This document shows positions 3,111 to 59,702 of a stretch of 64,000 bases of DNA, one piece after another (within the stretch, counting starts at the first letter, position 1; the number at the start of each line of letters is the position of its first letter). This stretch comes from Marsupella aquatica (taxonomy: Eukaryota > Plantae > Marchantiophyta). The notes beneath the pieces were generated by a model, which was not told the origin of the DNA, ran no database searches, and was given only the letters and a program-made list of their open reading frames with translations. The translations under genes were made by a program, and so were the position numbers. The DNA lies in assembly GCA_973895155.1 (NCBI GenBank), contig OZ316894.1, positions 22,291,867 through 22,355,866 of the forward strand, read 5' to 3'.

Positions 3111-3161
3111 AGGTGATGAGACTCATCGAACATCGATGCAGGTAGTGGTGCGCTCATAGAT

Positions 3162-3788
3162 ATGGTGACAGCAGCAGGGGTGTCAAATTTGGGGTTGGAC
3201 TCTGTGGGTATGCTTCTCTCGATTCCAAGATGGAGCCCAACTGGTGGGCTGGCTAGGAGAGGATCGTCAAGAGCTGGAGGATTGGGAGGAACGATTGGCA
3301 GAGGGGGAGAGAGGTGCGTCGGTGAGAGGTTGAACAGAGGAGGAAGTTTTGTGCAGAGGTGGAGGAGGAGGAGAAGGGGAATGTTCGATGGTTTTACCAC
3401 CTTTAGGGCCACTGCAGCAGATGATGTAGAGCAAGACGAGGAGGTGGAGGAGGAGGACACAGACGAAACTGCTGCCTCCTCCTCTTCTTCGGTGCATAGG
3501 CATGCTGAATTTTCTTCCAAGGAGATTCCCAAAATCCCCCAAATCTCCAAAGTAGAGCTGCAACAACAACGGACGAGCGGTGGAAAACTTCCTCGGACTC
3601 GGGCTCGCACTCCCAACATACTCTCCAGTATAGTAGAAGAGTGGACAAGTTTTACGTCTGTACGTGAGAAAGGGGACGTGCGAGATGTCGTATTGATGAG
3701 TCTCTCTTTCGCGGTTCTGATTTACATCTCCCAGCACCTTGTGCATGCCTACTGCACGTTTAGACATATGTATTTCAATCACTATTGA
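3162..3788 (+). CDS. Single-exon 208-aa protein of unknown function; Arg/Gly/Ser-rich N-terminus (possible plastid transit peptide), acidic tract and C-terminal hydrophobic helix
   Basis: Long GC-rich ORF after a GA-repeat leader. C-terminal segment DVVLMSLSFAVLIYISQHLVHAYC is transmembrane-like. No family recognised. Confidence 0.75.
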   Translation: MVTAAGVSNLGLDSVGMLLSIPRWSPTGGLARRGSSRAGGLGGTIGRGGERCVGERLNRGGSFVQRWRRRRRGMFDGFTTFRATAADDVEQDEEVEEEDTDETAASSSSSVHRHAEFSSKEIPKIPQISKVELQQQRTSGGKLPRTRARTPNILSSIVEEWTSFTSVREKGDVRDVVLMSLSFAVLIYISQHLVHAYCTFRHMYFNHY

Positions 3789-6700: not shown

Positions 6701-7240
6701 GTCCCAGCGGTGACTGCGAGGGTAGCAACTGATGTATTGTCGCTCAGTTTAGTAGACCCTGCAGCTACTCTCAAGGAGTGGTTCACCAAAATAATAATAT
6801 CGTTAGCCAGTTACGCGATTTAAGCAAACACGTTGTAGGGAAAGGGCAGGGACACCTCAAATTTTCCACAATCATAACTAAACTCTTCCGGTTTTATTTG
6901 TTAATTTGATCGCATGACTGAAGCACATCCAAACAGAAAGTTTGGCCAAGGTTTCCAAGTCCGATATTTGGATTGGTCTAAGTTGATCTCAAACTGGGAT
7001 CCGAGGTCGCTTGGGGAGGTTTCAGTCAAAGTTTGATACCCAGTCGGTGATCATTCAACCCGTGAAGTCTCTCCTACTTTGAGGCCAGAAAATTTGGTAA
7101 CAAGCAATTTGATCTAGCAATTTGATTAACACCTCTAGCTAGCGTACATTAGCTGTTGAGGTCCAAGGAATAAGAATCTAGGTTTTTCGTAAGTCTCACA
7201 TAATTTGCACAGGTCAAACTTGGTCGATGGATATATGTAC

Positions 7241-9895
7241 CATATAATCGCTCTTGCAATGTCCCTCCCCTGAGAAATTCGTAAACCAATATGTATCCAC
7301 CCTCTTCTTCACTGTACCCGACCAGAGACACTAGATATGGATGTTTACATCGCGAAAGTATCTCGACCTGCAGGGAACAATATATACAAATCATGTCACA
7401 TGACATCTGAGTAGTCTGCGGGCAGGTATATATGCAGCTGATTCAATTTCTCTGATACAACGCCGCATCAACTGAACCATCATGAGGAAAGTTTCAGTGG
7501 GAATGTACTTTCATCTGTGGTTCACTGGAGGTGAGATAACATAGTTAGTAGCTAGTTTAAGCTTAATGATAGATTATCTATTTTAGTAGATTGCTGTAAG
7601 TTGGACTGAACATTTGCTCAATCCTCAGTAGAGTTGTTTCGGAAGTTGAAAGTTCATGTTGGCAGGGTCTCACGGTCCAGGCAATATTCATGCTCTGGCA
7701 AGCTCGTCTGGACATTCTCTGAAGATATATGTCCTACTATAGGTCTAAGGAGTCAGGAGCTCTTCAGAAATTTCGTAGAATCAGTTATGGAGCCTCGCCC
7801 CTGGTTCAAGTACCAGTAGGCACTTGCTTGAACGATCTCCATCCCCAGATCGCTGCACATTAGATCGGAAATGGGATGTGTATACAGCTGACTGCGATGT
7901 GATCGACTGCATTTAAATGTCGGGTTTAATGTTGTGGAGATCATGCAGTGTTATTTGTAAATTGGAGAAGGCTAGCTACAGTACGTACCTCAGTCGCAAA
8001 CTCACGAGCTCCTTGGCGAGAGTCCTTGGCCTGGACCTTGACAGCCACTTCCATCTGGTTCCATGGAAGCTTGCCGAAATACACAGGGCTGGCCCGAACC
8101 CGCCTTGTCCAATCTTGAACCCAAAGTTGGGAGTGGCTTTCTTCACATCAGTTGCACGCATAGCTGTGGAAGCCCTCGACATATATATTTTATCAAAAGT
8201 GCTAATTCTGGAGGACTCTGAATATCCCATTGTAAGACAGCCCGAGAATGTGCATCATCCCGTCTGACTGGAATCAGTGCAATTTTCTCTCTTGTAGGCT
8301 AGTCCACATTGAAAATCACTGTTAGTCAGATGCAGTTTCATTCATCATGTAGTAGAATTTCTCTTTACAAGGTCCGGCTCATGTTCTTGAGTGAGTCTCT
8401 GAGGTTGCTTTAGAGAGCGAAGTAAAAATATTCTGAAAGCGTAATTCATTCAGATTGCAGCCCCGATTGCAACCATGCAAGGATTAGTGCAACAAGCTCA
8501 CGAACGTACCCTTTGGACTGGGCTGTGCGGAGACATGAACAACGCAGAAGAGGCATATTAAGCTGAAGACACTCTGAAGCTCAGTTGATCGTGTCCGAGA
8601 ACTACTCCAAAATGTACTGGATGGCCGCATATTCCTGTCGAACCGTTGTGGATCGCGACCCATTTCAGGTCAATTAAGAGATCTGCTTCGAAGAGCAAAC
8701 GGCGACGCAGCAGTCCCACAGCAAAGTCACTTACCGGTGAATATATATGTACAATTTACGCTCCAATCAACACAGCCAGTTCACAATAAATTCAGATATC
8801 AGCTGTCCGTAAATAAGCAATCTCGATCTCCGATCTTTAAATTCGTTTATTGACAAGATATATATTTTTTAAGGAGCATAGATTAGCTTGACCGTATTAC
8901 CTAGCTACTGCTTAACAACGAACTGTTCATGATTGAGCTCGAGATTGAGCTCTTCCACCTGATTTTCATGAATCTCGAATAATAATCCCTACCAGGAGGT
9001 ATCCGAGCAGTCCGTCGCAATTTGGAAAGGGCATGACTGCATGTCAACACACTTTTATGTATGCATTCATCAATTCCCATATGGCTTGCTGTTCCCACTC
9101 CTTGTGAGCTCGATCAGCTCAATTTACAGCAATACCCAAGCATTGATCACCTGATGTTCCAAAATCCCTCTCAGGATACCACCCTGATGGCATTGATGTA
9201 CATGGTGGTCCAGTCCGCTCAGTCGTCTTCCTGCCCATTGAATAGGGTTCTTCCAAAATGGAGTTGTGAGTATAAAGATCTAGCCTCGGTGGCGTTCGAA
9301 CAGTCTAGGAAAACCAGGGCAATGCACAGGCGAAAACTTTGCACTCGAGGATCTCCGAAACTTCGAAGACAGGTACAGTAGATACCGTGTGCAATCTAGC
9401 TGATTCCTAGCAGTGATCTAAAGTCGAAGTTACGTTCCATAACGTCTGATCACACTCCCATGGACCTCGATCAGTCAGCTCAACTCCGATCCTTGGTTGG
9501 GCCAATCTGCACTTTCCCTGGTGAGGTGGATCCTGATGCTAGAATTGCACCACCGTGATCCATGTGATATAATTGTCGACACAAAAGCTCCAGAATTCTC
9601 GAATGAGACTAGTGTCTCTCGATCTATCCGCGTATGGGAACATCTTGATGTTATCCACCGGGGGAACTTACTTAGAGCAAGTATAAGTATTTTAATAACC
9701 CACCAAGCTAGCAAGGTACGTAACCAGTTTACAACTGAGACAATCCGAACTACAGCTCAAAAATGATCCAAAGGCAGAAAAGGGCAAGAAGAAGAAGAAG
9801 AAGAAGCAATTACCTCGGCATGATCGAGCACACCAACAAGCAAGCGTTCAACTCAAGCTAGAAATGAATTCAGATAATTGGACATAGTTATCCTC
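7241..9895 (-). pseudogene. Decayed receptor-like Ser/Thr kinase (LRR-I/malectin-like RLK type), frameshifted and truncated
   Basis: The exon ending at 7989 reads ATDVKKATPNFGFKIGQGGFG, then a 5-bp insertion, then VYFGKLPWNQMEVAVKVQAKDSRQGAREFATE|gt. Exon 7367-7241 reads VEILSRCKHPYLVSLVGYSEEEGGYILVYEFLRGGTLQERLY|gt. Upstream there is a TM-like remnant near 8510-8580 and stop-ridden ectodomain-like remnants (MYINAIRV). I found no HRD/DFG exons downstream. The 5' boundary is uncertain. Confidence 0.8.
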
Positions 9896-10331
9896 TGACT
9901 GGGGTCAAGGCTACTTTCATATCTTACCCGGCGATAGACGAAGTTCTGATCAATCATGGAGAGGTGACCGATCGATCAGCTTATTATCACACATCTGCTG
10001 CATGGAGATTCGACACGGACCTTGTCCCGTTACTTTTCCACAGCTTTTTGCATCGTTGCATTGTAAGAACAACGTTCATTCAGGGGTTCAATCTATTGAA
10101 GTTAATCATTGATTATGACTCAGTGTGCATCGGGGATATCACCGGCTGTAAAAGACAAATTAATGAGGAATGCCAGGAGAAGAAATTAATGAACCTTGGA
10201 GAAATCTCCTGGAGTTTTGTTTGTCTGTTGGCCCGGCCACAGCTGTGACAAGACCCGGTTGTAACAAGTGATCCATCGCTTGCCCAGAGATTCAAGTTTG
10301 TACCAATTAAACCCTGAACGAGAAAATCCGT

Positions 10332-10612
10332 CTGCTGTGGAGTGGAGGGTGTGGAGTGGAGGGTATATGTGTGTGGGTGAGACGGGTTATGTGAATCTGT
10401 ATTTGTGGAGGGTATATGTGTGTGGGTGAGATGGGTTATGTGATGTATGTTGTGGATGGTATATGTGTGTGGGTGAGATGGGTTACGTGAATCTGTATGT
10501 ATGTTGTGGAGGGAATATGTGTGTGGGTGAGATGGGTTATGTGCATCTCTCCGGTGTGGAGGGTATATATGTGTGGGTGAGATGGTTGTGTATGGGTTAT
10601 GTGGGTGATGGA
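10332..10612 (+). repeat. GT-rich minisatellite, about 5-6 imperfect units of 45-55 bp (TGGAGGGTATATGTGTGTGGGTGAGATGGGTTATGTG...)
   Basis: Repeated units visible. The ORF track shows the repetitive peptide THLTHTHIPSTTYI. Confidence 0.92.
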
Positions 10613-11165
10613 TGGAGTTCTGATTATCAACCTCACCCCTGGTTGTCCACTGTGTATACCTGATTTAATACTCTCGTCCTCCTGGTGCGGGTCCCTTTCA
10701 GATCAATGGGGGCTTAGAACCCTGTAATGGGTTCCCTACAAAGAAAGGTCAATATTGGGGTGGGGAGAGTCTACTATATATATAAGTGTTATTCCTCTCT
10801 CTTTTTCCAGACCAGAAAGAAGAAGAACCTGTCTGACTTGCATGGTTTGTGGCTTTTGGGAAGATTGCAATCATGTAATAAATGCTCATTACTTAAATTA
10901 ACTGTGAGACCAGTTAAACTATGGACCACATTCATTGAAGGAGAGGAAGCACTCCAGGCAAGATGATAGCTTACAGGACAAGGCTATGGAAGTGGAGTCC
11001 TGCACAGAAGTGGGGCCATTGTCTTATATTAATTCCTTCTAGTACTAAACCTGGACCATATATTGAGTGGAAATAGCTGAAGTTGACTTTACAAGAACTT
11101 GGGGACATAAGGTACGTTTATGGCAAATGCGCACAGAGGGAAGAAATAGCAGCATAAGGTTGAGA

Positions 11166-11385
11166 GAATTTTCCTTCCCAGGATAAAGCAGATTGCTGGT
11201 TTATACGACTCACTGAGTGTTGCAGCCAGGTACACATGGAAGAATTTTCCTTACCAGGATAACCAGATTGTTGATTATATGACTCACTGAGTGTTGCAGC
11301 CAGGTACATATGGAAGAATTTTCCTTACCAAGATAAACCGGATTGTTGTTTTATACAACTCACTGAGTGTGGCAGCCAGGTACAT
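11166..11385 (+). repeat. Tandem repeat, 3 copies of about 75 bp
   Basis: GAATTTTCCTT..CAGGATAA...ACTCACTGAGTGTTGCAGCCAGGTACA occurs three times in succession. Confidence 0.93.
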
Positions 11386-11427
11386 CAGAGACTCACTTTT
11401 TGACGTGTAGGTACCAGGACGCATTAA

Positions 11428-11592
11428 ACCACAACTGCCCTTCAAAAGCTACGGGTTACCTGTAGTTACCATTAAAAGGAGATTTTTCTTGAAATTGTGG
11501 AGTAAACTCACATGCTAGAAGAGAACAGTGATTGAAATGTGGAAAAAGGAGGAGGTCTTGGACACTTCCCTTTATATAGGGCAAGTTGTGGT
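11428..11592. mobile_element. About 165-bp MITE, copy 1, with TIR ACCACAACT(T)GCCC and flanked by TTAA
   Basis: TTAA|ACCACAACTGCCC ... GGGCAAGTTGTGGT|TTAA. Internal sequence is homologous to 36476-36639. Confidence 0.8.
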
Positions 11593-13905
11593 TTAAGGCA
11601 AGATGTCAGGGCCCAACTGAATGCTGATGGTTATTTTGTCTAGAATTTTTGGATCACCTCTAGCTATACCAAAGAACTATAATTGATACAAAATGGAAAA
11701 AAACTAAGTACAAAGAAGGGACAGCAAAAGAGGTACAAAGAGGGCAAACACCAAACAAGAGAAAAGGTAAATGCAACCCTGCAAACGGAGAAAGAAGTGG
11801 TCCAAACATTACTAACTTAGGCTTCTAAATTCAAGGGATTTGGATTTTTTGACATTCAATTCAAAAGATCTTTGGTCTGGAGTCTATATTTAGAACAAGA
11901 AGTGACCATACAGTTTCGTTCAATGGTGAGCAAAAGTCACAGGTGCCTGGCACACATCTTGTAAAGCCACCCTTAGATAATAAAGAGAGCCCACTAGCCC
12001 AGTCAGTGGACTTGAAAATCTATGTATTTGGCATGATCTGAGAAATTAAGTCAGCATCTCTTCCGGGCGGCAACTCCTTAGTTATTCATGTCAGGTTGAT
12101 GTCTTGGATGGGCCATTCATCCAATTAAAGAATAGTTTTGTCCTAGGTACCCAACTCTCGTATGATAGGAGGGGTCTAGATTTGTACATGAACTAAAAAG
12201 TTGGCTGTACTAAAAAGTAATATTTTTAGAAAGCTGGGTTTTCCACTCTTAAAATTTATGAGTCATAAATGAAGTCCTACTTGGCAAGCAGTGAGCCCAA
12301 ATAAATCCAGAATGATGTGAAGCGTTTATCATGTCTAGAATTTTAGACCACCTCCACCTATGGTCCAAACATTTCAAAACTTGGGCTCCTTGTGCATGTA
12401 TTGAACTTTTGTCATTTCAAAAGACTTTAGGTGTGGAGTGTATCTTTAGAAAGTGAGTGAACATAAAATCACCAAAAAGAGGGCCAGAAAGTAATACGAA
12501 TTTTGACATTTTGTCTTAAAAGAAATACTAGTACTTGTTAGAATTGATGTACAAATCCCCTAACCAGTGGTAACTAGCCACATTGCATGGGGTAAACAAA
12601 GAGTAATGGATGTAAACCAGCGAGTGTAAGTGATGCAAGCTAGCACTTTACATAACAGAAGTAAATACTACCACAGCACAAGGAGCCGGGAGAATCCATA
12701 AGCGCAAGAAAACAACCCAATCTAGTCATGGGAGGCATAGTGGAATCCAGTGAACAGCTTTCGGCCTAAATCTAGATCCAATGACTACTTACAGTTTTGA
12801 CCCCAGGCAGACCTCCACAAAAGCAGTTCAAAACTGACTGCCTGTTTTGATCTCATTGACACTATTGAAATGAACCTAAGTGTGGTCAATCCTGGGCCCA
12901 TTATGATGTCTAGTTTTCTCAGTCACAATTAGAGCCGAGCTCCCATATCAATCACCGAGTCATCATTACACGTGGGGCGATTCAAAGGCTCCATTTCATG
13001 TGTTATGACCTCAAACGAGCGTGATAGGTTCTTCTAGGTTCTTCGGGGAAGGTGAAGACATCAGCGTCCACAAGAAGCAAATCTTAGGTTGTACACATTT
13101 TGACTTCTTGCTCTGCGTTTGTCAACAAAGGCGTCCAAACTTTGAAGAACTAGCGTTAAGATTGCCTTTCAATCTGCATCTGGAGGCAATCTGTGGGTAG
13201 ACACGAAGTCATGAGTATAATGGACATTCATACTCAATTTTCGACCCTACTTCCAAAAACCCTTATTCGCAGTCTCATGGGTTTCCCCACATGTCCTCCT
13301 AAATCATTGGACACTACCCTTGACGAAAGTCCGTGCTCGACTCGTGTTATGTTTTGCATAATTTTCAAAAGTTTTGGGATTAGAACGTTAAAAGGAGGCG
13401 TCACATAGAATCTGGTGGTATGACATTTGCCACCCTCGACAATTTCAGGAATTCTTGCTTCCAGAGATCAGTTCATTTCGCAAATCTTTAGTTTGCTCGT
13501 GCATTTATTCATATTTGCCACTACAGGCCATCATAGAGCATTTCCACCCCTGGGACACAGACTCTCAATTTGAGCCCGTACTACAATGAACAATGTTTTG
13601 TCACACTCACGCGTGTCCTTTACGGGAGCCAGACTACACACATCGCTACGCATCAAAATAATCTCACTGAGAGAAGCCTTGGATGTATTCCAGAACTGTT
13701 TGTCACTTATACAGCATCCTCAAGGGTTTTTGAGGTGAGCATCGCTGCTAAACAAAGGATAATAAGAACATATCCATGAAAGTCTCAAGATATGTACAAT
13801 GGTATACATAAGTTACAAAGGGGCTCTAAGTTTGTACCTCAGTTAACGTCCTTCCCCACAAGTCGAGCGCAAGTATTAAAATATCCAACAAAAATATCAC
13901 CAAAT

Positions 13906-16392
13906 TTAATCTGTGCCTGCAAAAAATGGTCTCCTGGCAATTTCCCATTCTGTCGAGTTCCTAGTCTTCGTCTTGTACCTTCGATAAATCTTCCTACCAA
14001 TCATATCCTCTTCAAATTTGTCACCAACAAAAAATGTATTAACAGCCCCTGGAAAGAAATTTGATACTGCAAGGACCCAGTTGAGAGGTAACCATGCCAT
14101 GAATATGTATTTTGCTGCTACTATAGCTCCGAGTATACCGAAAACGAAGCCCCCATACGGATACAGAGTGAAGACCTTGGGAGAGATTGGCAGTTCCATT
14201 GTTGCCACAGATGTCGATGTTGATTCTCTGCATAGATCAAGAAAAAAACAGGACTCTTCAGGTGGTAGAAGGAATAGCAATGACGTAACACTATCTCTGG
14301 AGTGATAAGTGTGACTTTTCTTGGTTAGGACACTGCTTCTGGCTGACAAATCCACATCATCATGATCTTCAGCTCATCTACTAACATCTAAACATCTCAA
14401 GGATCTAAGCAGGTGGGGCTCTCCATCAATGTTACAACACCAGAGATTGAACATTCTATGGAAAAACTCGAAAAAATCCCAAATTGGGGTCAAAAGTAGA
14501 TAGGGCAACGGGCTTCAAAGATTCACATTACCTCAAGTCGTTAAACTCATTAAATGGGGATACCACCCCACTTTGTCCCCAAGACGAACATCGCAGAAGT
14601 GTGAAGCCATTTTCAACTGCTCGAAATGCATCAGCTTTAAACTGATAATTTGCCATCGGTCCCCATGTCCAGCTGGGTTGAATCATGATGTCCACCCTGT
14701 GCAGTCACGAAAGAGATATAAGACAAACTTCGAAAGAAATTTCTGCAGATCTGGATAGAGAAGATTCTTATCGTCATTAGAATTTCTTCGCTTATATTTC
14801 CTTTCTGTGAGTAAATGAAGGATGAAAAAATTATGTGCAACGTTTAGCTTTTGTCTTGGTCACATACCAACCAAGGATGAAGGTTCCCAATTTAACAAGT
14901 TTTACAAGGCATGAAGTGGTGTTGCTGAGAAGCCCTTTGAAATTCTCTTTAAGATTGTGCAGTACATACAAAATCAAGAACAGAGAGAGACGTTAAGAAC
15001 TGACCCCAGGTATGATGCTTGTTTCAGCAATCTGGGGAACTGGTAGTCAAAGCAAATGGCCGCACTAACGGTTCCAAAGGGAGTATCCACAGCTTTCAAT
15101 TCACCAGGGCCTGCAATGGTTTCCATCTCCACAAATGGCACTGGGTTTGTCTTCTCATACCGAAATCCAACTGATCCGTCCGGTAGCATGAACGTAAAAA
15201 CATTGAATTGTGAAGCAACTTGCCCTACCTTCATTCCATCTAGTACCTTGGCGTAAGACAAGCCCAAGTACGGTCCATGGTCAAGTGCAACAAATTCCTT
15301 ATCACTTTTCAGATTAAGTTCCTCCCTCTTCACCTGCTCCAACAAAAGTAGCTGCCGAGCCCTGGAAATAAGTTCATCCTCACCTTTCTGCCCATAAACT
15401 ATTGTGGCTGTTTCAGACCAGACAATAAACGCATCTCCAGCCTTTGCTCGGTCTGAAGTTGCATTCCATAGGAACTCACTGGTGAGACGCTCCGTGTCCG
15501 CGACATAGCTGGGCTGCCTCAGAATACAAGACGCTGGTACGGTGGGTTTGATTGTATCGTTGATCCCTTTCTCGAAAAAGCTGCCAGAGAAAAACACCAC
15601 TTTAGCTCCTGAAATCAATAGCGAGAGGATCAGGATTGCGCTCCAGATTTTTACGAGCCTGTCATGAGTCTGGACCTTCTTTGCAAACTCCTTGGTGGTC
15701 AATTTCTGACCAAGCCTTCGGGATCCTTCTCCGTACGAATCGCTATCACTATCAGCTTCCATGTCATCAACAAGATTAGCACCAGCTGCTGTTACAGTCC
15801 ATGAACTTTCACCAGCTTCCTGTCTCAATTGCAGGCGCTGGTGCAGAAGGGCAGCGGTCCATGCCATGAAAAACACTATACCATCAACGCCCAAGCGAGC
15901 TACCGTGAGCACAATGGGCTGAATGCCGTGCTGTGTGTAGGCAGGATTTCCGGTTGTTCCAATCGGCGACAAGGTGGCTGAAGTATGCCACATCGTCATC
16001 CAAACAACTGGGAAAGCAAACGGATGGGATAGAACGGCCGCTGGGAACCGCTGCTCGTAGTAAACAGTTGTCACAAAAACAAGGAGAAGAACGATCCAAG
16101 CGAGCAAGCTCACGGAGCCTACTGTCAACAGTCCGGTCCAGGTGAAGTAGGGATCGTTCAACTCAGCTGCGTAAGCAATTGTGTAGCCCAGGGTTTGCGT
16201 CACGAGAACAAGCAGCAAAAGGCCAAGAAATTCGCTCAGCTTCCGCTCCAGAACTTTGGCATGGTGCAGAAACTGGAGGAGAAGCAGAGGCTGGAGCCAT
16301 TCCAGGATAACAATAGATTGTAACCCTGCGAAGGCCGAGCACACTCCTGACCCGAGTAACAGAAAGTAAACCTTCCAGCTGACGTCCTCCAT
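13906..16392 (-). CDS. Apolipoprotein N-acyltransferase (Lnt)-like membrane carbon-nitrogen hydrolase, 624 aa; exons 16392-15005, 14696-14532, 14227-13906
   Basis: Multi-TM N-terminus with LSPIGTTGNPAYTQ and ARLGVDGIVFFMAW. Nitrilase-fold triad motifs IVWSET, YEKTNPVPFVE and AAICFDYQFP. Exon 2 reads VDIMIQPSWTWG...FRAVENGFTLLRCSSWGQSGVV and exon 3 reads LPISPKVFTLYPYGGFVF plus a TM segment. Two GT-AG phase-2 introns join in frame. Confidence 0.9.
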
Positions 16393-17169
16393 CTCTGTTT
16401 ATCTTTCTGCTCTTTCTCTCTCGTCGAATGGGGACGGCAGAGGCTACACAAAGATAGCAGACTGCTTCTCCGTAACTTACCCCAATTGGGGTTGGAATAA
16501 ACTCGAACCCAATTCCATTCAGTTTTCTCGCTCTCTCACATAGGATTCGCCTCCCTACAAAACCTTAATCGCGTACAAAAAGAGGCGGCAGGCAACAAAA
16601 TCACAAAGAATTCGCCTCCCTACAGATGTTCAAACCCCAGACCCACCTCCACGAAGGGCTCTTGCAGTTTGATCCCAAGGGAAATCTCAAATCTGCCTCA
16701 CAACTCCCGAGTCTCTTGTTTGTCCATTTCAGATGTCTTCCATCAGCATTTCCGCTCTCCGGAGCACAATCATGAATGGCAACAGTTCTCTGTGTGATAA
16801 TCCGAGTGCTCAATTGCTGGGCAGAAACTCGGAATGCAGACCTGGTCGTGGGGAAGAGCTCTACAGTAATGTACTGTGCATCTTGTAGCAAATGGCTCCT
16901 CTTTTTCCAGGCTCAAGCCTTTAGAAGGACCCACATATTTGACCGGATCACGCCATGGCACAATCTGCCCTTGCCGGATGGGGAATCGTTGGACGAGAAG
17001 GGTTGCGTTGCGAGTTTTGCTCGTCAATCAATCATGAGACTGGGCCAGAGGATAGAGGAAGGAATTGCACAGAGGTCAGTTGACTTCGAGGTTCTGTCTC
17101 ACTGATCTCGTGAAACTCTGGAGTATAATTGGTTTTTAGGGGGGTGTTACCAAATTACCTGTAAAATGT

Positions 17170-17736
17170 TTTTTACTACCTAGTCCCCCAAACTGATCCT
17201 TGTTCTCAATCTCTGCTCCTCAAAGTATTTTAATTAGTGTGCTGACCTCCATTTTGTGTATGGGTTACTTAACCTAAATTCAGGTCATTTTGTACTAATT
17301 GTCTGCCACATGGCAAGATGCTATTGGCCCCGGAATGTGAGAAATCAAGCCCACCCAGGTTTGTTCTTTCAAACAGGATTTAGGGGAAGGACCTCAACGT
17401 GAACAAGGAGGGGGCAGCCCTGAGTGTCACCAGGCCAAAACAGGAGGGCCGGGAGGAAGCCGGAGTAGGGCCAGGACTTGCGCAATGTGAGGGAGCTGGC
17501 CCAGTTCTCCCACATTTGTCAAAATTGGAATGAGGCTAGGTTCTGGTATTACTGGATGGGGTTTGGCAGGGCAAATAGTGCCTTGCCACATGGCAGAAAA
17601 CCAATGCACAATGCCCTTGGGCTAAGTATAAGAGTAAAAGTAACCCGTATGCAAAAGGGGGGTCAATCTAGTGATTAAAATAATTTGGGGATAGTTGAAA
17701 ATAAAAAGTGACTTTGGGGGATAGGTTAGCACAAAA
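17170..17736. mobile_element. MITE with long imperfect TIRs (about 160 bp), Mutator-derived type
   Basis: Left arm ...TAGTCCCCCAAAC...ATGGGTTACTT...TGCCACATGGCAAG..CTATTGGCCC mirrors right arm GGGCAAATAG..CTTGCCACATGGCA...AAGTAACCCGTAT...TTTGGGGGATAG. TSD not resolved. Confidence 0.7.
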
Positions 17737-18850
17737 GGGTTGCTTAAGTCCATAGAGGTATGACTTTGTGGTAGCTCACTTGAGTAGAGGCTTATAGATC
17801 TTGGGTTAAACTATTGCATTAAAGAAAAAGAAAAAAATGGTTAAAACTAGGTACATTCAGTAGTTCAAAGGAATGGAGAAGCTCACAGGTAACTGCTTGC
17901 TACAATTTTTAGTGTTTGAAACCTAAACGTTAATTAGCTTTTGAAGTACCAACTTGCACGACCATAAATGTAGGTTGCAACTATACAAGCCTTGCATAAT
18001 AGTGCTTTCCTTTCCTTTTCTCCAGCGCCCTGATTGGAGTGAGGCTAAAAATTAATCTTACTATAAAAGCGTGAATTGAAGTATACTCTTAATTAAGTGT
18101 CTACTGTAGGTCTAGAGTAAATTCTCTAGACAGTAACTCACAATACAAACAAAACTGATTAGGTCAAAATTTTAAATGAGGATGGACAAAATTGACATTG
18201 ACTCTAAGTAAAGACAAAACTGAAATGAGTATGGACAAAAAACAAAGATGAGTCAAAGACTTACCAAAATAGCATATAAATTGTATTGTGCTTCATATCT
18301 ATTTATGTTCAAGTACCGGGTCAATGGGGCTAGTAACCAAAAAATCTGCATGGAAGTTTCTTATTAAATTAGGTGAATTTTCCCCTCAAATCAGTATATA
18401 TCGAATTTGCATAATTAGAAGTTGCTTAACCCCCACAAAACTGGTTCTATTCCTACAGAGCTAAGTTTTTCCTGTTGTGAAGTCCAAGGACCTCTAGGAG
18501 GCCAAAACACAATTTCACCTTGATGTGGAACACCCTAGTTGATGTCAATGTCAAAGAATAACTCAACTAGAATTGAAATCCTGGTGAAATCATCTAATTT
18601 CAGCCACTTTACTTATAACTCTAGTGGGCCAAGGGAAATAATAGTTATTTGATGTAGATTCTATAGGAGCAATTGACAACTAGTCAGATGCCAAAATGAA
18701 GCTAATCATGCTTAATATGCACTTAATATTGAATTATACTGAGTGATGTCAAGTGGAAGTCAAAATTGAGAAGAACAATGTTTCACAGATGCTTGTATTC
18801 AAAAGATTGGAATTGCTTTCTATACTCCAGCTTTTTGCCAAGTATAGTTA

Positions 18851-19217: not shown

Positions 19218-21198
19218 CTATGAAGTAAAGTCTTGGTCTAATGGAGGTCTGAGGGTGAATCTGCGCAACCACAAATCATACATTATCATGTGGAATGTAT
19301 CGTAGTCTTGCGGAGGAGAGTTCCATGTGAAGAGACGGCGCACAATGCCCACGTTTCGATGCAGCGTCTCGTACCTCTCGTCCGAGATGGACTTCAGGAT
19401 GGTCTTCAGAGCGCCCACTTGCGATTCTTCCACAATCACTGCGAACTCCTTCCAATCCAAGATGTCACTGAAAGGGAGATCGAACTGGTCCGCCAAAATC
19501 ACAGGTACGCATCCGAACAAGATCGCATCCCCCATTCGAGCCGTGTGGACCTGCAATGAATTTGTCCACGCTCATCATCATCAGATCACTCCCCAGAATT
19601 TTAAGCTTGTGGAATTCCTGGTTGTGAATTCTCAGCAACTATCCGGAAGGAGGCGTAATTGCATGCAAAGCCACGAAATCACAAAACCTCACAATCATGC
19701 AGCTTCACAATTGTTAAGTTTGAATGGGTCTCTTTTGTTCAGTTGCATTCCCACTCAAATTTCGAGTTCAAGATTCCTCGATCATCCCTTCATTCCAGAC
19801 AGAGCATGGTAACTATGTCTGCGACTTGAGAACCAGAGCCGTAGGAGATTCGCAATAAAATCATGCAACGCGTGAGCACTCGTTGCAAGTTGAGAATCAG
19901 GTTATCAGGAATGATGAGGGTTTCTCTGCCTGGCATGATCCTGTTCAGCTTGGTCGAGCTAGTCCGTCAATTCCAGCAGAGAATTTATTAATGATGTCCA
20001 ATTAATTCAAGAAGCAAAAGTCGGGATTTGCAGCACGGCAGTTACTTGCCTGGTATCCTTTAACATGAAGGCAATACTTCGCCTTCCGGAAATTGGCGAA
20101 GTAGTCTTCCCCCTTCACTTTCTGATTCAACACTCGGCCTCCTCCGAGTAAAATCTCGTCGTCGTCCGACCACGTCTCCCATAGAACTTTCCGCACTGCG
20201 GAGTTCTGAGATCCGGCCCAAAACGCCAGAATCTTACTAGCTTTCCTGCACAATCATGTGCATCCAGGCAAATTAATACTTTCACGAAGCTATCTAGACC
20301 AATGTACAATTTGTAAGTGAGTACCCAGTACGTCGGACCACAAGCGATTGCTCTCGAGAGCCGCTCTCGAACACAGATTAATTAATTTAGTCTGTACTCA
20401 CCGCTCTGCTGCGGAGAGGCCTCCTGGTTCGTGGCCGTAGCGAGGCCAGATTTGCGGGAACGAGAAGTCCTTCGTGGGGATGTAGTTTCGCTTCCAGCGG
20501 CTGGCAGGGCAGATAATCTGAATCGCTGACCCGCTGAGATGCGGAGTTTTCACTGCAGCGTCCACGCCAATGTCATGGCAAGTGAAGTAGAAATGATCAG
20601 CTCCACCGGTCCGATTCCAGTATGGCCACTTCTGTCTCACTGTCTCCTCCATGTACTCTCTCACGAACGGGGACACCGAGGTCGGCCCGATCGCCATCCG
20701 CAGGCCCAAAACCGAGAACGGAAGCGCGAAGAAGTGCCCCTCGTTGGGATCATCCGTGCGGAACTCCGACTCATGCAAGTTTCGGAAGAGGTAGGGCTCG
20801 CTCGCATAGCTTCCGTATGGGAGTCGAGCCTCTTTCGGCGCACCATGCCCAAACTTGCCCTTGGAGTCGTTGGCGGGGTGAGGGTAGATGTATATCTTGA
20901 GGTTCTCCTTCATGTCGGCATAGTCTGCTGCGAACACCTCCCGCGAATGGAAGAGGGGCTCGCTCATCCATTTCGGTGCTGTAACATTCGTCGAGGTAGT
21001 CAGGTGAGACGAATTCGAAGCCTTGCGCGACTGAACACGCAGCGCTGCTGATGATGATACTTCTGTACTTCCAACGATCAAAAGGATTGATGCAAGGTAA
21101 ATTGGGACAGCTACCATAGACAGAAGACTAGGTAGCACATGAAGTGCTGGTGATGACGGACGAATCAGCCTCACTCTGCTTTGATTCCGTAAAGCCAT
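19218..21198 (-). CDS. Exostosin-family glycosyltransferase (CAZy GT47), 441 aa; exons 21198-20402, 20245-20050, 19550-19218
   Basis: N-terminal TM anchor. Motifs LKIYIY, YASEPYLFRNL, WPYWNRTGGADHF, LAFWAG, KAKYCLHVKGY, ARMGDAILFGCVPVILADQFDLPFSDILDW and YDTFHMIMYDLWLRR. Splice phases are consistent. Intron 2 has a GC donor. Confidence 0.95.
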
Positions 21199-22542
21199 TT
21201 CGGGCTAGGTACGTCGCACAGATCGTGTCTGTTATATTTCGAACATGCTTAATTCAAGCTCATCCTAGGAATAAATTCGGCTCGTCATACCGTAGCTAGA
21301 GGTCTGATTCTTGAGAAGCTGACGTTAGAACCAGAATTGGCTTCGTTCCATCCGTCTACAGCCTGCTCGTTGAATCGATTTTGAGCCGGAGAGGGCTACA
21401 GAGTTGAGTGGATCCCGAGGTAAACATGAAGTCCGGCCTCGATTTCATGCATCGAAAGCAATACCAGAGCACTAGTGTCGGAGTCAGAGGGCTGTGTGAC
21501 AGGATGTTGACGGAATAAACACCATGAGATCGAATAAGCATGATTATTTATGCTTTAGAAAACTGGCTCTGATTCTCAGCTCTCCTGTACATCGAGCGAA
21601 AAGTACGGTAGTGGCACCTAATTATAGCTCGGTTCTTCTTGGATCCCGGGAGATCGAGTCCATCGAAGTGAGATTTCATGATAAATCTTCATTCAAGAGT
21701 GGACCAGAAGTCCTCCACTCGATCACACAACGAGTCAATTCAAGGCATGTGGCCCGAAAGACGAGGGCTGCCAATCTGCATGTCTTTGTAGCGTCCTCAC
21801 TCCATTGAAAACACACAATTCACACAAAGCTTCGAAAGAGAACATTACAGTTCGTACTATAACTGGTACATTATGATTAACAGTACGCATCGTGACCGTT
21901 TCTCCACTGAGCACTAGGCAATCCGACATCACACCATGTCACACCAGGTCAACGAGGGGAGGGAGCAATCACGAGACATGGAGTGCTGGGTCTTGGAGAT
22001 CGAGTTCCATTAGGCCTGGCTGGGATCAACCACGCAACCAAGTGAACACAGATCTCATCCAGAGCACTGGCCACCTCACACGGACACCAAGAAAAGACTC
22101 GAGGCCACGTCCCGATAAATATACATGCGACGATCCAAAAGCTTTTGTCTGATCGAATATCAGAATTCGAGTCATATTTTAAACGACGAAAGCTCGGCAA
22201 AGGAATCTCCGTAATTGGACCCCACATTCAAAGCTCCGGACGACCAGCAGGGCCCTCCAAATTGGATTGTGCATGGCTGGCTCGAGTTTTTCTTGGTTGT
22301 TTCCCACCAGACCTCAAAGAACTCATATTACTATTGAATGGACTTGTCGTCGCTTGAACGGTATTTATTTTTATGAGCAAGCCAGGCACAAAATCGCCTT
22401 TTTGCCTCGCTTTTTGCCCAATTCTCGGGACAAGCGATGGTTCGGATCGATCTGCTTTCTCCAAAATAACCATGAGCCAAAGCGATGGAAGCAAACTAGC
22501 AAAGTACTATGATAGAGATCATTCCTGTGGCCAAAGAACAAA

Positions 22543-49758: not shown

Positions 49759-52562
49759 TCAACTAAAGTCAAGAGACGGTCTGGTGACAAATCTGCGGAG
49801 CCACAAGTCGTACGCAATCATATGGAAGATATCGTAGTCTTGCGGGGGAGAGTTCCAAGTGAAAAGGCGGCGCATGATCTGAACATTGGCGTGCAAGTTC
49901 TTGTACTGGTTGTCGGGTACAGCCTTAAGAATTTGTTTCAGGTTGGGTATTTCGGACTCAACAACTATAACAGCAAACTCTGTCCAATCCACCACGTCCT
50001 TGAACGGAAGATCGTACTGATCGGACAGGATCACAGGAACGCAACCGAAGTAGATCGCATCACCGATCCGAGCCGTGGGAACCTGCAAAATTTGCTCATA
50101 GATTGAGCCTTGACGACCTTGAGCAATTAGATGGACATCGAAGCAACGATTGACAGCTAAGCAACGATCTGTAGCTTCGTCAAGATCGATCAAACGTGAA
50201 AGGTTATTTCTCCAAAACAAAATACTTTCATGTTACCGAGATCAAGGTCCACGCAGAAGCCATGCAGTTTCCTAGAATGGGATCCGACTTTCGCATCCCA
50301 TCGGTCTCTGACATATGATCTGTCCGTTCATATTCATATGTAGAATAAATGTGAGCTCGGACCTCGCTGGACGCGCAAGAATTTGGGGGCCAGCGCAGTC
50401 TGACGTACAGCAGAATAAGTACAATAGTAAATCAAGATACGTGCACATCGACAGCACTAATCTTTCTAAAGAAACTAGCACTGGGCCCACAGAAGGAAGG
50501 AATATCTGGAGTTGACGCGATAGTGCATCTTTGCTTCAGGCAATAAAGTACAAAGTATATACATTGCCCTTTAATTTAGTTAAGTGAAAGCATTTCTTCG
50601 ACCCAAAGACGAAGGAAACATCCAAAGTACTCTATCAAACAATTGAGTCACCCAGCTCTAAGCAAGGTGGCCAGTTGAGGGACTCGGATCACATCATCGT
50701 ATATATGCCATTTGATCACAATTACCAAATGATCAAGGATAAACCCGGTTTCAAGAGTTCTGTGGATGTTCTCGCCTACAGGGACCTAACGACCTACAAG
50801 GATAGTGTCAAACACCTTCATGGTACTACGCAACCCACACACAATTGGGTCGCATAGTCGGTCGAAAGTCCTTCGAAATATGATATTAGATATTATTACT
50901 CATCGAGATTTCACAATTGGCGGAACCCGATACTAAGCTACACTTGGACGGGTCCACATGTGAGTACGTACGCATTTGATCGGTTGACGTTAACGGGTCA
51001 ACCTCTTTGATGTACAGACCTGGAACGATAAGTCCATCTCCAGGTAGACTAGACCGCGCGCGACCATCAAATTGAATGACACTCACTTGAGCTAGACGAT
51101 GAATAGATCCAGAGAATTGCAGAGTTGTCTCGGACCTACCGAATTCAACGTACTTGATCGAAGACAGTTATTAAACGGATGACAGTTTGGACAGTACTCA
51201 AAAGTGCCTCGAGTGCATACCTGGTACCCCGATACGTGGAGACAGTACTTTGCTTTCCGGAAGTTGGAGAAGTAATCTGTCCCTCGGACGGCTTGCGTCA
51301 ATAATCTTCCTCCGCCCAGTAAAATCTCGTCATCGTCATTCCATGTCTTCTTCAGCGCTGCACGCCCTCGAGAGTTTTGAGACCCCGACCAAAACGCTAG
51401 TATCTTGCTGTTTTTTCTGTACATTGTGACATACACATCGCACGATCAGTTAATTTGACAACTGATAGGCGAATTCAGATCATATAAATTATGCTTGCAC
51501 AAAAACATACACTTAAAGTCTGTCTTAAACTGCATCAGAGAAATTCAAGTTTACGCTTTCGTCCATGCTTCATTAAGACGACAACGATGAACAGTAATGA
51601 GTAATTTTGGAAAAGCTGGGAATAGATCTGTAAGTGTTGAACAATTGAGACTTGAGAGTTCTCCTGATTGATAGCTTTGGCCTATATAGCTGCTCAAGAA
51701 AGTTAAAGTACATTCATTTAATTTAGGACTGTGGCCTGGCTCAATTTGCTCCAAAAGATCTTTCGCAATTGCTCCAAAATTAAAATGATCGATATATCGA
51801 GCGAGTGATTACCGTTCTGCTGCAGAGAGGCCGCCAGGTTCAGTATCGTATCGCGGCCAGATCTGTGGAAAGGAGAAATCCTTCGTTGGGATATAATTTC
51901 TGTGCCAGCGGTCGGCAGCGCAGATGATCTGAATGGCGCTGTAACTAAGGCCCGGAGTCTTCAGTGCAGCGGATCGACACGCCCAGATCATGGCAAGTTC
52001 CATACAGATGGTCGGCTCCAGCGGTTCGATTCCAGTACGGCCATTGCTTCCTCAGTGTCTCTTCCATGTATTGTTTTACAAATTCCGAGACGTTACCCGG
52101 CCCAATTGCTAGGCGCAGCTTGAACACCGAGAAAGGGAGCACGAAGAAGTGCGCCTCGCTCGAGTCATTGGTGCGCATATCCGTCTCGTGCAAATTTCGG
52201 AAGAAGTAGTGCTCACTGGCATAGTTGCCGGACGGTACAGGCTCGTCGGGACTGTATCCAAACTTCTCGGTCTCGTTGGCCGGGAATGGGTAGAAGTATA
52301 TCTTCAGCTTCTGCTTCATCTCGGCATAGTCCGCCGCGAACACCCTGGGCGAGTGGAATAGTGGTGCCTGCATCCATTCGGGTGGTTGCAACACTGCCGT
52401 CGATCGAACACTACTTCTAAAAGATCGTACCGATCTGTCTGCTGCCGTAATTACGAATCCGAGGAGAATCAACAAGCACACAAATCCCCCTCCACGGTTT
52501 CCAAAAACCCAACGACATGACCGAACCCTGCCCAGCAGCTTATTATAATCCCTAGGCGCCAT
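49759..52562 (-). pseudogene. Second exostosin/GT47 paralog with a +4 frameshift in exon 1; exons 52562-51813, 51416-51221, 50082-49759
   Basis: Same exon structure as 19218-21198, including a 196-nt exon 2. At about 51971-51977 it reads GGC GTG TCGATCC GCT GCA where the paralog has GGC GTG GAC GCT GCA, so the frame switches from CHDLGV to AALKTPGLSYSAIQ. Confidence 0.88.
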
Positions 52563-53542
52563 CTCGATTGCTTGGGAGTTAGTTTCAATCAATAAATTGG
52601 ACCACCGTGATCTATCTACATGGGCGATCTCTCACCGCAAAGGAAGGAAGAACACGATCGAGCAAGAAAGAGAAGGACCCCCAAGATTTACAATTATTTC
52701 CAAAACCTTCTAATCAAATTTACAGTCAATTTTTCTCTCTATTTGAAATCAATGGAACCTTTTCGCTGCCTGAAGCTTCACCCACAGAGCAACATTGCAC
52801 GTCCAACCAATTCAACTTTTAATTCACTGGCACTGGACACGAACTAATACTGCACCAACAATCACCCTCAACGTTAATTTCTATCCACCGAGTGACGACT
52901 AAGAGCTCTCGATCTACTCACGATCACGTCCAAGATATAGCAGTATACCATCGATGAATGCACAATGGATCGATCGATCCTCCACTCCGAGTCGTAAGAG
53001 ATCGATCATTCTGTACGTCCACATGCCCAATTTTGCACTACTGTAAATTTGAAGAGATCGGGTTATATAGGGTAGCTGGGCAAAGAGGCTCGATCCTGTG
53101 TGCACTGAGTGTCAATTGGGATGTGCACGTAGAGAAACGAGAGCACTCGACGGAGATCCACCACGAAACTGAAACTAATGTGCCAGGTCTGATGAACGCT
53201 GGACTATGCATTGTCGCTATGCAAACGACGAGGAAAACTCCTTCATATATAGACAGCAAACAAATCGCCGAACTGCTGAATAGCATCGGCACTCTGCGTC
53301 ACATGATACGCAACTGGGAATTTCTTCGGAAGTCGAAGAATTGGAAAAGAGAATTGGAAAAGTATGCCAGTAAGCGTCCATTATTTGTCCTTTTTTGCCT
53401 TGAAAGAAAGCATACAAACAGGTGTCCCAAAGAGCAACACCGGGGGGCCAAAAGGCCAGATGTGCCAATTAAAAAACCAAAGGGGGCGGTACGAGAGATG
53501 CAAAGCCTTCCTGGAGAAACAAGCAATTTAACTCCTGCACTA

Positions 53543-54598: not shown

Positions 54599-54759
54599 CC
54601 CTCTCTTCAACCAGACACCAGAAGTCAGAGTGGAAAGGTAAACGCAGTCCAGCTGGAGGAGAATGGCGGAGTCCAATGATCGTTGTGGAATGCAGTAGGA
54701 GACAGTACTGCGATTGGCAACTATTCGAATATGTCGATTGGTAGGACCAGCAGCCGGCA

Positions 54760-55137
54760 GTGAAGGGGCAGCGGTGGAGCGGGCGCCGATACATGGGGAG
54801 TATGAAGAGTAGGTGCATGGTCGAAGCAGCAGATTGTGAGGAGCAAGCACAAGGGCCAGTGGCGAGAATGGTAATGGAGAGGGAAATAGTGACACAGGAG
54901 CGGCCGACGGTAAGGGCAAGAGGTTTGCCACGTTATTATGCAATTGCTATCGGGAGGAAGCCAGGGATTTATGTGTCATGGGAAGCAGCAAGCAGGCAGG
55001 TAACGGGATTTCGAAACAACCGACTTGAGATGTTCAAGTTACGTGCGGAAGCGGAGCAGTACCTAAGGAAGGAGTTAAATGTTGGTGCAATGTCAACTGA
55101 AAACAGAGAGCGGTTGAGACAAGTAGTAACATGGTAG
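54760..55137 (+). CDS. Antisense accessory ORF in the copia 3' UTR encoding an RNase H1 N-terminal hybrid-binding / caulimovirus viroplasmin (Cauli_VI-type) domain
   Basis: 54931-55065 encodes RYYAIAIGRKPGIYVSWEAASRQVTGFRNNRLEMFKLRAEAEQYL, matching the YYAVxxGRxxGIYxxWxECxxQVxGFxxAxYKxFxxxxEAxxYL pattern. The start codon is uncertain. Confidence 0.8.
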   Translation: MKGQRWSGRRYMGSMKSRCMVEAADCEEQAQGPVARMVMEREIVTQERPTVRARGLPRYYAIAIGRKPGIYVSWEAASRQVTGFRNNRLEMFKLRAEAEQYLRKELNVGAMSTENRERLRQVVTW

Positions 55138-55169
55138 TAAAAAGTAGAACAGTGAGACGACCAAGTAGG

Positions 55170-58100: not shown

Positions 58101-59702
58101 GTGGCTTAGACGTCTATGCCAGAGATCAACAAGATTAGTGGAAACTTGAGTGATCTCGAGTGCATGTAAAACATCCGGTGAAGCAGCAACCAAGGGGGCA
58201 TGCAACTGGTTGGCGTTGTTGAGTTGAGGTCAAGTGTTGGAGATGCCGAGAGAACCAAGAAATCTGCTCGCCAAGTAAAGTAGTTGATAGCCGGTAAAGT
58301 CCATTTCGTGGATTTTGAGAAGCTTTGAGAGCCACAAGGTGTGGGTTGTCTCGATCAAAGACGTAACACTCTTTGGAGTCAAAAAGAACAAGATAACCAG
58401 AGTCAGTTAGCTTTCCAACAGACATGAGATTCTTGTGTACACCTGGCACGTAAAGAACATTGCTCACCCGTGTGCTCACCGGGGTGCTCACTGCTTTATT
58501 ATCAACCTTAACTGTGCCCTTTCCCAAAATCGGGAGTTTAGAGCCAGCTGTTGTAGTGACAGTAGGACCATACGAGGTCCTAGGGACAAACTCAGATAAT
58601 CCTACTTGAGCTCCAGCAATGTGATTGCTAGCGCCAGAGTCTAGGTACCATTCTGGTCCTAGTTCAGTAAGATTGCCTGGCAGTAATTTCTCCTGAGGTC
58701 GGGTGAGAGAAATCTACATGGTCATGAACGTTGACATCAGCTGTCTCAGTGAGGTGGCCCTGTGGTTTGAAATGACGTAGGCCAGATGCACGGAGCTGGA
58801 GTTGAGCAATCTGATCATCCACTTTCTTCAGGTCACAGTCTACTTCCCAATGGCCTGGCTTGTTGCAGTAGTTGCATGCTCTGACCCGGCCCCTGCCACG
58901 ATCAGCTCTCTGGTCAGTCTGGTGGTGGAAACATGGGCGCTGGTTCTGAGCACGAAAGCCACGACCCGTTCCATATGAAGGATTACGGAAGCGAGTCATG
59001 ACCAAGGCTTGTTCCTGGGTATCATGCATCCTGATACCCACGTCGCCAGTATTCTTCAGCCTGGAGTTTTTCCACCAGGTTGGCATAAGTTGGTTGAGGA
59101 TGCCTGGAAAGATCAGAGCCAAACACAGAAATAAAGGGACCCCAACTCTTTGGAAGTCCACGAAGTACAACATGCATCAGCCTGGTCTTATCATGATATA
59201 TCATGAAAATTGATTGGTGAGGTCCTCAATCTCTTTTAAGAAATTTTTGACATAGTGCCTTCAAGCATACGGATAGACTGCAACTTGTTTTTGATTAGCA
59301 GCCAGCCCTTCATTGGATCAGATCACCTCCAAACCGTTCCTTGAGATGATTCCATCCTGCAACTGGATCATTCGAGTAGTTTAGAATTGTGGGCAGGAAC
59401 TGGTCCTGCACAGTCGCCATCAAGATTGACTTTGCCTTTACCTTGAGTTGGCGGATCTGCTGAGGGGTTTGTTGAGGTTGCTGGACCCGGGGAACGTTGT
59501 CACCTTCTTGATCAGCATCGTCATTCTCAACGTCACCTGCAGGAGGGATCAAGTTATTAGAATCGGTATCTTCTCCTGCAAAGTTGAGCTCATCCCAGAC
59601 TTCATCGCGTTCTAGTAAAGTCTGCACACGAGCACTCCAGCTAATGTAATTCTTGGACCCTTCGAGCTTAGCATTGTCATTGAACAAGCGGGCTAACTCC
59701 AT
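55170..59702 (-). pseudogene. Copia gag-pol polyprotein with multiple frameshifts
   Basis: Gag: KLEGSKNYISWSARVQTLL and zinc knuckle CNYCNKPGHWEVDC. Protease: WYLDSGASNHI. Integrase: LWHRRLSH, IHSDLCG, FIDDYSRFTWVYFL, TDRGGEY, QNGVAERKNRT. RT: MDVVTAFLNG, LYGLKQS, LLYVDDL. RNase H: GYTDADY, TKHIEAKHHFVRE, ADIFTK. Confidence 0.96.

Follow-up and report, generated by a model that had tools for sequence, protein, structure and literature searches.

The liverwort Marsupella aquatica carries a spliced nuclear gene for a membrane protein that resembles the bacterial lipoprotein N-acyltransferase Lnt. The gene occupies positions 13906 to 16392, on the minus strand, of a 64,000-nucleotide stretch of contig OZ316894.1 (assembly GCA_973895155.1, positions 22,291,867 to 22,355,866 of the forward strand), referred to here as the window. 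An earlier note on this DNA had proposed that the gene was acquired by plants from bacteria, or via fungi, and then domesticated. Here, we find that it very probably descended vertically from the algae ancestral to land plants, as part of a eukaryote-wide Lnt-like family. Most likely, the gene was already nuclear and spliced before the origin of land plants, and the family most likely entered eukaryotes once, very early, from a bacterial lineage lacking most of the lid loop of Lnt (lid-less) and not from canonical Lnt. These conclusions follow from the tree, approximately unbiased (AU) tests, a cysteine pair and an FYQ motif specific to the clade, and an apparently shared intron position.

Distribution and phylogeny of the family

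A phmmer search over 1.84 billion representatives gave 2147 matches at an E value of 0.001, the best 150 of which were listed; organism names came from look-ups of 30 proteins and from two further searches. The named plant and algal homologues belong to Selaginella moellendorffii, four Sphagnum species, several Closterium strains, Volvox (two), Pleodorina, Edaphochlamys, and Cyanophora paradoxa. Fungal homologues were found in Basidiobolus (two), Actinomortierella, Podila (five), Lichtheimia, Rhizophagus, Ambispora, Cladochytrium, and Physocladia, and a 61-member, mostly basidiomycete Atlas cluster also falls in the family. Further members came from Paulinella chromatophora, Balamuthia mandrillaris, Amoeboaphelidium, and three MMETSP transcript clusters, so that named homologues span Archaeplastida, Rhizaria, Amoebozoa, aphelids, and fungi. 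No seed-plant or animal name occurred among 67 matches in a word-indexed search that was incomplete (it missed the Selaginella homologue). Likewise, no names surfaced for Marchantia, Physcomitrium, a hornwort, a fern, Chara, or Klebsormidium in these incomplete searches, which proves nothing about those lineages. The family has likely been lost in seed plants.

A FastTree phylogeny of 182 proteins of 430 to 800 residues, with 15 near-identical cluster members dropped, resolved three groups, namely 20 canonical Lnt proteins, 49 bacterial proteins of the lid-less type, and a clade of 112 whose named members are all eukaryotes (P0169 was excluded from these counts). In an IQ-TREE analysis (LG+C20+F+G4, 48 rows, 492 columns, rooted on four canonical Lnt), the eukaryote clade received 100/100 support, and eight rows had long branches. 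Support was 99/98 for streptophytes with chlorophytes and unnamed rows, 100/99 for streptophytes, and 100/98 for Sphagnum with liverworts. Moss and liverwort therefore lie inside a streptophyte clade that is itself inside a clade with chlorophytes, and orthologues are distributed broadly and vertically across green plants and eukaryotes.

Both transfer trees that were tested fared poorly. On a quick tree, joining land plants to bacteria lowered the log-likelihood by 67.5 and was rejected by the AU test (P = 1.0e-4), which, with the streptophyte clade at 100/99, refutes a bacterial donor to land plants. Joining land plants to Basidiobolus, Actinomortierella, and Podila lowered it by 100.5 and was also rejected (P = 1.8e-4); this fungal set was chosen after the tree had been seen and is one of several fungal groups. 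The absence of a named seed-plant homologue among the 67 matches, and the Atlas clusters nearest the Calypogeia protein, which are basidiomycete and Chloroflexota, could still be read as traces of transfer into the plant lineage followed by domestication. However, that account has to contend with the AU tests, the streptophyte clade, the apparently shared position of intron 1, and an identity to the window protein that falls from 74% in Calypogeia to 43-44% in Sphagnum, 34% in Selaginella, and 24-25% in bacteria; we consider it very improbable. As for the intron, homology is lost right after QAxxxG, the end of exon 1 in the window, in five Sphagnum-cluster gene calls and one Closterium model. 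The position of intron 1 is thus probably common to Sphagnum and Closterium, as read from gene calls whose DNA was not seen.

Several observations qualify the picture of simple vertical descent. The deep forks inside the eukaryote clade are open and the fungi are not monophyletic. Selaginella is misplaced (94/71), lying outside moss, liverwort, and Zygnematophyceae, and the chlorophytes group with unnamed proteins in the 48-row tree. Because of these features, there is room for deeper transfers between eukaryotes. In addition, most of the 112 clade members are assigned to the eukaryotes by their position in the tree only.

The window protein shares the defining features of the eukaryotic lid-less clade: its place in the tree, Cys289 and Cys499, the [FY][FY][QE] motif, a linker of about 33 residues, and QPSWTWG. 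The catalytic triad is intact in 104 of the 112 clade proteins. In seven (P0248, P0252, P0080, P0078, P0014, P0044, and P0111), the catalytic Cys is replaced by Gly while the Lys is kept. These proteins sit in separate parts of the tree (aphelid, chytrid, and unnamed rows) and are probable pseudoenzymes that arose several times. P0214, a EukProt gene model that groups with Closterium, has an N-terminal ornithine carbamoyltransferase fusion (PF00185, PF02729) and is probably a merged gene model.

Gene structure and transcript support

The three minus-strand exons (16392-15005, 14696-14532, and 14227-13906) join into 1875 nt encoding 624 residues and a stop, with no internal stop, in agreement with the earlier reading. 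Exon 1 (15005..16392) holds codons 1 to 462 and two bases of codon 463, and encodes the seven-helix membrane domain, most of the nitrilase domain, and the whole triad. Exon 2 (14532..14696, 165 nt) encodes QPSWTWG, RAVENG, and RCSS, and exon 3 (13906..14227) encodes TLY..G, the last membrane helix, the basic tail, and the stop. Both introns are GT..AG: intron 1 (14697..15004, 308 nt) lies in phase 2 after QASYLG, and intron 2 (14228..14531) has 304 nt. Their G+C contents are 0.36 and 0.41, against 0.50 and 0.46 in exons 1 and 2. All motifs reported earlier were located in the translation, with WSE starting at residue 325, YEK at 412, ICFD at 446, RAVENG at 488, TLY at 538, and the acidic insert DDMEADSDSDS at 209.

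Splicing was followed in sequencing run X1, which comes from a relative of the window species (about 92% identity) and is taken to be RNA as a guess. X1 contig 3 covers exon 1, is contiguous with a probable 5' untranslated region (16393..16818), and skips intron 1, passing from 14692 to 15004 with three letters between (joint placed at 14696|15005). Before 14532, this contig ends in 28 loose letters, 23 of which agree with 14200-14227 in exon 3. Both GT-AG introns are therefore spliced out in this contig of a relative, which answers the earlier call for a check of the junctions, provided that X1 is indeed RNA. Contigs 1 and 2 extend over a probable 3' untranslated region (13659..13905). The two introns are without X1 coverage, and X1 also leaves out an intron of the exostosin gene nearby, as would be expected of spliced RNA. 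A further run, X2, contains the entire window as a single piece without differences and may be where this DNA came from.

The closest named protein is the orthologue of Calypogeia fissa, whose 74% identity extends over all 624 residues. As the host is a leafy liverwort with such an orthologue, the earlier comparison with flowering plants was not the relevant one. The view that the neighbours are native holds, with plant-type genes flanking the spliced gene.

Fold, topology, and clade-specific features

Profile scores of the window sequence are low. Exon 1 alone scores 33.9 bits with TIGR00546 and an E value of 8.6e-4 with CN_hydrolase, and LNT_N has no match in exon 1 at an E value of 0.1. A profile built from 74 relatives, by comparison, has Lnt as its top PDB match (E = 6e-18), the alignments with E. 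coli Lnt spanning profile positions 7 to 501 of 539. A hydropathy scan of the window protein gives six peaks over 1.6. The fold was modelled with AlphaFold2 for the Calypogeia orthologue, not for the window protein (predicted local distance difference test [pLDDT] 88, predicted template modelling score 0.89). Seven long helices precede the nitrilase domain in this model and one follows it, and the Lnt architecture claimed earlier, here eight membrane helices with the nitrilase domain between helices 7 and 8, is thus supported for the orthologue. Lnt is also the best PDB match of the model in Foldseek (E = 3.7e-16), and VIA-align superposes the two over 461 residues (Z 27.7, root mean square deviation [rmsd] 3.6). 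For the catalytic domain, formamidase ties with Lnt in VIA-align (Z 26.8, rmsd 2.5, 228 residues aligned).

Two cysteines mark the clade. Cys289 (15526..15528, minus strand, as for all features of the protein) occurs in 110 of 112 eukaryote-clade, 0 of 49 sister-group, and 0 of 20 canonical Lnt proteins, and Cys499 (14588..14590) in 109 of 112, 1 of 49, and 2 of 20, respectively; the pair is a possible disulfide. The FFE of the window protein (15571..15579) lies in an extension of about 10 residues after membrane helix 7 and represents the family motif [FY][FY][QE], present in 72/112 eukaryote-clade, 0/49 sister-group, and 0/20 canonical Lnt proteins.

Membrane helices 6 and 7 are joined by a long loop (residues 186-248, 15649..15837) that holds the acidic DDMEADSDSDS (15736-15768) and is predicted to be cytosolic and disordered; pLDDT is under 50 at residues 203-208 and 218-223 of this loop in the Calypogeia model. 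The median loop length is 33 in the eukaryote clade and 67 in streptophytes, against 19 in the sister group and 27.5 in canonical Lnt. The basic C-terminal tail (residues 585-624, 13909..14028) is conserved in liverwort copies only, and tail lengths are 34, 41.5, 0, and 3.5 in the same four groups. Thus, the suggestion that the acidic insert and the basic tail are lineage-specific additions applies to their sequence, which is shared with Calypogeia and not with Sphagnum or Selaginella, while their presence is general across eukaryotes.

The Lys+Arg counts of the window protein are 0, 0, and 0 in loops 1, 3, and 5, and 1, 3, 1, and 10 in the N terminus and loops 2, 4, and 6. The corresponding clade means are 0.03, 0.26, and 0.51, and 1.54, 1.02, 1.94, and 4.73. 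This alternation, which is that of the Lnt topology, would place the catalytic domain on the non-cytosolic side. The seven residues ahead of membrane helix 1 leave no room for a transit peptide.

Relationship to canonical Lnt

Judged by its sequence, the protein is not a true Lnt. The full-length Calypogeia orthologue scores 54.7 bits with TIGR00546, below the cut-off of 132.9. The active-site core is complete, with catalytic Glu327 (15412..15414; Glu267 in E. coli Lnt), Lys414 (15151..15153; Lys335), and Cys447 (15052..15054; Cys387), together with a second active-site glutamate, Glu422 (15127..15129; Glu343). Phe-Asp comes after Cys447, in place of the Tyr-Glu of E. coli Lnt, and CFD replaces CYE in 98% of the eukaryote clade. 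The linker from Lys to Cys (15052..15153) has 33 residues against 52 in E. coli Lnt. Across the proteins compared, this spacing has a median of 33 in 105 eukaryote-clade and 49 sister-group members and is 50-58 in 20 canonical Lnt, which means that most of arm 3, the amphipathic lid loop with Pro353, Phe357, Phe358, and Met362, is gone. Trp237, Glu389, Asn412, Arg139, and the Gly145 loop are not conserved either, although the Arg139/Gly145 region aligns loosely and is less sure. In the eukaryote clade, the Trp237 column is a gap in 98% of proteins, Glu389 is replaced by Asp in 98%, and Asn412 by Trp in 80%. In the available text of Wiktor et al. (PMC5500888), Pro353, Phe358, and Met362 on arm 3, as well as Trp237, Tyr388, and Glu389, are described as important or essential for Lnt. 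According to the accessible parts of Lu et al. (PMC5500890), the lid is proposed to keep solvent away from the site, and Val339, Tyr388, and Glu389 are assigned to the binding of the lipoprotein.

The likeness to Lnt of E. coli and P. aeruginosa (TIGR00546, branch 9; PDB 8B0K, 5N6M, 5N6H, and 6NWR) is nevertheless extensive. The clade shares the seven helices, the nitrilase domain, and the final helix, and it keeps the Glu-Lys-Cys triad, Asn314, Glu343, Val339-Pro340, Trp415, Arg432, Glu435, Arg442, Gly447, T-x-Y, and the R-A-x-E and R..G motifs. In contrast, identity in structural alignments is 14-16%, the lid loop is 19 residues shorter, and the Lnt GFPW loop is not kept. The clade also differs in its eukaryotic hosts and in the added cysteine pair, FYQ extension, long cytosolic loop, and tail.

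Soluble nitrilase-superfamily amidases resemble the catalytic domain alone. The formamidase AmiF (5G3O) and the Nesterenkonia amidase (5JQN) superpose on it with Z 26.1-26.8 and rmsd 2.5, and Bacillus AmiF has the same Lys-Cys linker of 33 residues. However, these enzymes lack a membrane domain and act on small polar substrates. The protein does not belong with them, given its membrane domain and a formamidase model score of 24.3 bits against a cut-off of 406.

The lid-less bacterial sister family

A lid-less bacterial family (P0003, P0004, P0164, and P0260) is the sister group of the eukaryote clade in all trees. It shares a linker of 28-35 residues, the CFD-type motif, and RAVENG, and differs in the 24-25% identity given above, in a short loop, and in lacking the cysteine pair, the FYQ motif, and the tail. 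The 43 sister-group loci (L002-L044) are scattered over many phyla, including Chloroflexota, Bacteroidota, Ignavibacteria, Bacillota, and Spirochaetes; none is cyanobacterial. Neighbourhoods were examined at 37 of the 43 loci, leaving out six partial or weak ones. No conserved partner gene was found at these loci, the largest shared neighbour family being present at 5 of 37. Among 66 scanned neighbour proteins, there was no lgt, lspA, corC, or ybeY, and no pathway was seen. The gene is usually stand-alone; a transcription regulator adjoins 6 of 37 loci. Four of five tested bacterial genomes with the lid-less gene also had a canonical lnt above the cut-off, which argues for a distinct job for the lid-less enzyme. 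No description of this bacterial family was found in the literature.

Proposed function and alternatives

The reading that we favour, with confidence a little short of even, is that the vertically inherited protein is a lumen-facing lipid-amide hydrolase, possibly with a transacylase side activity, rather than a lipoprotein acyltransferase. The hydrolase direction taken by itself is an even call. From the charge bias and homology, the N terminus would be cytosolic and the catalytic domain would lie in the secretory or vacuolar lumen. By analogy with Lnt, a lipid would enter sideways from the bilayer and acylate Cys447. Because the lid is gone and the linker is as short as in formamidase (33, against 48 in AatD, an Lnt-fold protein acyltransferase), water or a small soluble acceptor would then release the chain from the thioester. 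The substrate may be an acyl amide such as an N-acylethanolamine, an N-acyl amino acid, a ceramide, or a lipopeptide, which is a guess. The open lid-less site and the formamidase-like linker lead us to rank a lipid-amide hydrolase ahead of a small-amine N-acyltransferase, and that ahead of an AatD-like enzyme.

As for location, [DE]xxPL[LI] motifs sort proteins to vacuoles. Nine of the 112 clade members carry such motifs in their cytosolic segments, where 200 shuffles gave 0.5 +/- 0.7; in the catalytic domain there are two, with 2.0 expected. This hints, from the sequence motif, at a vacuolar or lysosomal location for fungal and some algal copies. Glycosylation sequons were also considered as a sign of a lumenal domain and were rejected. 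The eukaryote clade has 208 against 178.6 expected (ratio 1.16), a count below the +3 control (265) and a ratio below that of canonical bacterial Lnt (1.33). The 37 of 37 sequons at Asn310 arise because Thr or Ser is kept there in 65 of 75 proteins without the Asn.

The sequon result is one of several that count against a lumenal hydrolase. The dileucine motif was chosen post hoc and is absent from all 18 streptophyte proteins, that of the window included. The whole membrane domain is kept along with Val339, Glu343, and Asn314, which fits transfer as well as hydrolysis, and the extension after helix 7, which only the eukaryote clade has, could stand in for the lid. The lipid-amide hydrolase activity, the substrate, and the lumenal location are predictions.

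Within the same ancient family, the enzyme might instead use the ping-pong chemistry of Lnt to transfer an acyl chain from phospholipid to the nitrogen of a lipid or small amine, which we think distinctly less likely; the products might then be, no more probably, N-acyl-phosphatidylethanolamine, N-acylethanolamines, or ceramide-like amides. The retention of the whole Lnt membrane domain and of the first-step residues would suit such an enzyme, whereas the open lid-less site favours water. Seed plants make N-acylethanolamines, yet the 67 matches of the incomplete search had no seed-plant homologue. On the other hand, the range of arachidonate-type amides, which the available text of PMC5264637 gives as algae, bryophytes, and monilophytes and not seed plants, loosely parallels that of the family. 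An AatD-type protein N-acyltransferase, acting on free N termini of secreted or lumenal proteins after signal-peptide cleavage, is less likely again. The predicted lumenal site would suit this role, and its wider entrance could admit a folded protein. To our knowledge, however, no such modification exists in eukaryotes, and the bacterial sister group lacks a conserved partner gene. AatD itself, the glycine N-acyltransferase of CexE/Aap, is an Lnt-fold enzyme that acylates a soluble protein without the Lgt-LspA route, as described in the consulted part of PMC8689077, and it differs in its dedicated secretion operon and substrate and in its long linker (48), linker length being the only feature compared.

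Plastid peptidoglycan persists in glaucophytes, streptophyte algae, bryophytes, and lycophytes, and the finding of the gene in Cyanophora, Paulinella, Closterium, Sphagnum, Selaginella, and liverworts might suggest a true Lnt kept there for plastid-envelope lipoproteins. We judge this highly improbable, as the family also occurs in fungi, an amoeba, and an aphelid, the protein has no transit peptide, and the Lnt comparisons failed. Nor were there cyanobacteria among the sister-group loci, from a tree that included no cyanobacterial Lnt. A broader reading is that the Lnt fold, having entered eukaryotes once and early, serves an unrecognised lumenal pathway of lipid N-acylation or de-acylation in the secretory or vacuolar system. 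This seems rather unlikely, though less so than any of the other alternatives weighed here. The same doubt attaches to its details, namely that the pathway may be AatD-like N-terminal acylation or the stripping of bacterial lipopeptides. It attaches equally to the notion that algae, bryophytes, lycophytes, amoebae, and early fungi kept the pathway and that seed plants apparently lost it.

Neighbourhood of the gene

High-copy repeats flank the Lnt-like gene at 10000-12400 and 17270-18600, where the summed contig depth of DNA run X4 reaches 3373 and 3979, respectively, against under 100 elsewhere. GT47 exostosin-family glycosyltransferase genes lie at 19218-21204 and 49759-52631, both on the minus strand, and are probably paralogues given their similar exon layout; the former is spliced in X1. 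Copia-type retroelement pieces occupy 54745-59708 on the minus strand in separate frames (DUF4219, protease-like Pol_BBD, integrase, SH3, and RVT_2), and a plus-strand open reading frame (54745-55134) encodes an RNase H1 N-terminal domain. Adjoining retroelement-like DNA, a 354-residue open frame at 62847-63911 (minus strand) has an NIF/FCP1-like phosphatase domain (E = 3e-16) and may be a host gene or transposon cargo. An exon-sized frame at 7152-7442 (minus strand) gives a weak protein-kinase match (E = 1e-4) and probably belongs to a multi-exon kinase gene located at about 5 to 10 kb of the window. The 222-residue open reading frame at 3120-3788 (plus strand) has no Pfam family over the cut-off. 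One X4 contig lacks 3266-3917, a segment with GT..AG ends; a retrocopy or a deletion allele may be the cause.

Significance

No description of eukaryotic Lnt-like proteins was found in the literature, in a search that left subscription journals mostly outside. The one supplementary file of PMC12513842 that was available gave no match, and the other tables of that paper could list the family. The sequences themselves can be found in databases with automatic annotations (for example, "CN hydrolase domain-containing protein"), and the family seems undescribed. In the accessible text of a peach paper (PMC4391166), "apolipoprotein N-acyltransferase" is the family name given to AT5G12040, and the Lnt literature, as far as the available sections of PMC8689077 and PMC5500890 go, treats this enzyme type as bacterial.

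A well-supported clade that combines the complete membrane fold with a triad intact in most members extends Lnt-type enzymes across eukaryotic supergroups and removes one apparent gene transfer into plants. The family is a defined candidate for an as yet unassigned lipid-amide reaction of algae, early fungi, and non-seed plants. Loss in seed plants, if true, would explain why a putative lumenal pathway based on the Lnt fold was missed in model organisms. In addition, the family offers a natural lid-less counterpart for asking why Lnt acts by transfer and not by hydrolysis.

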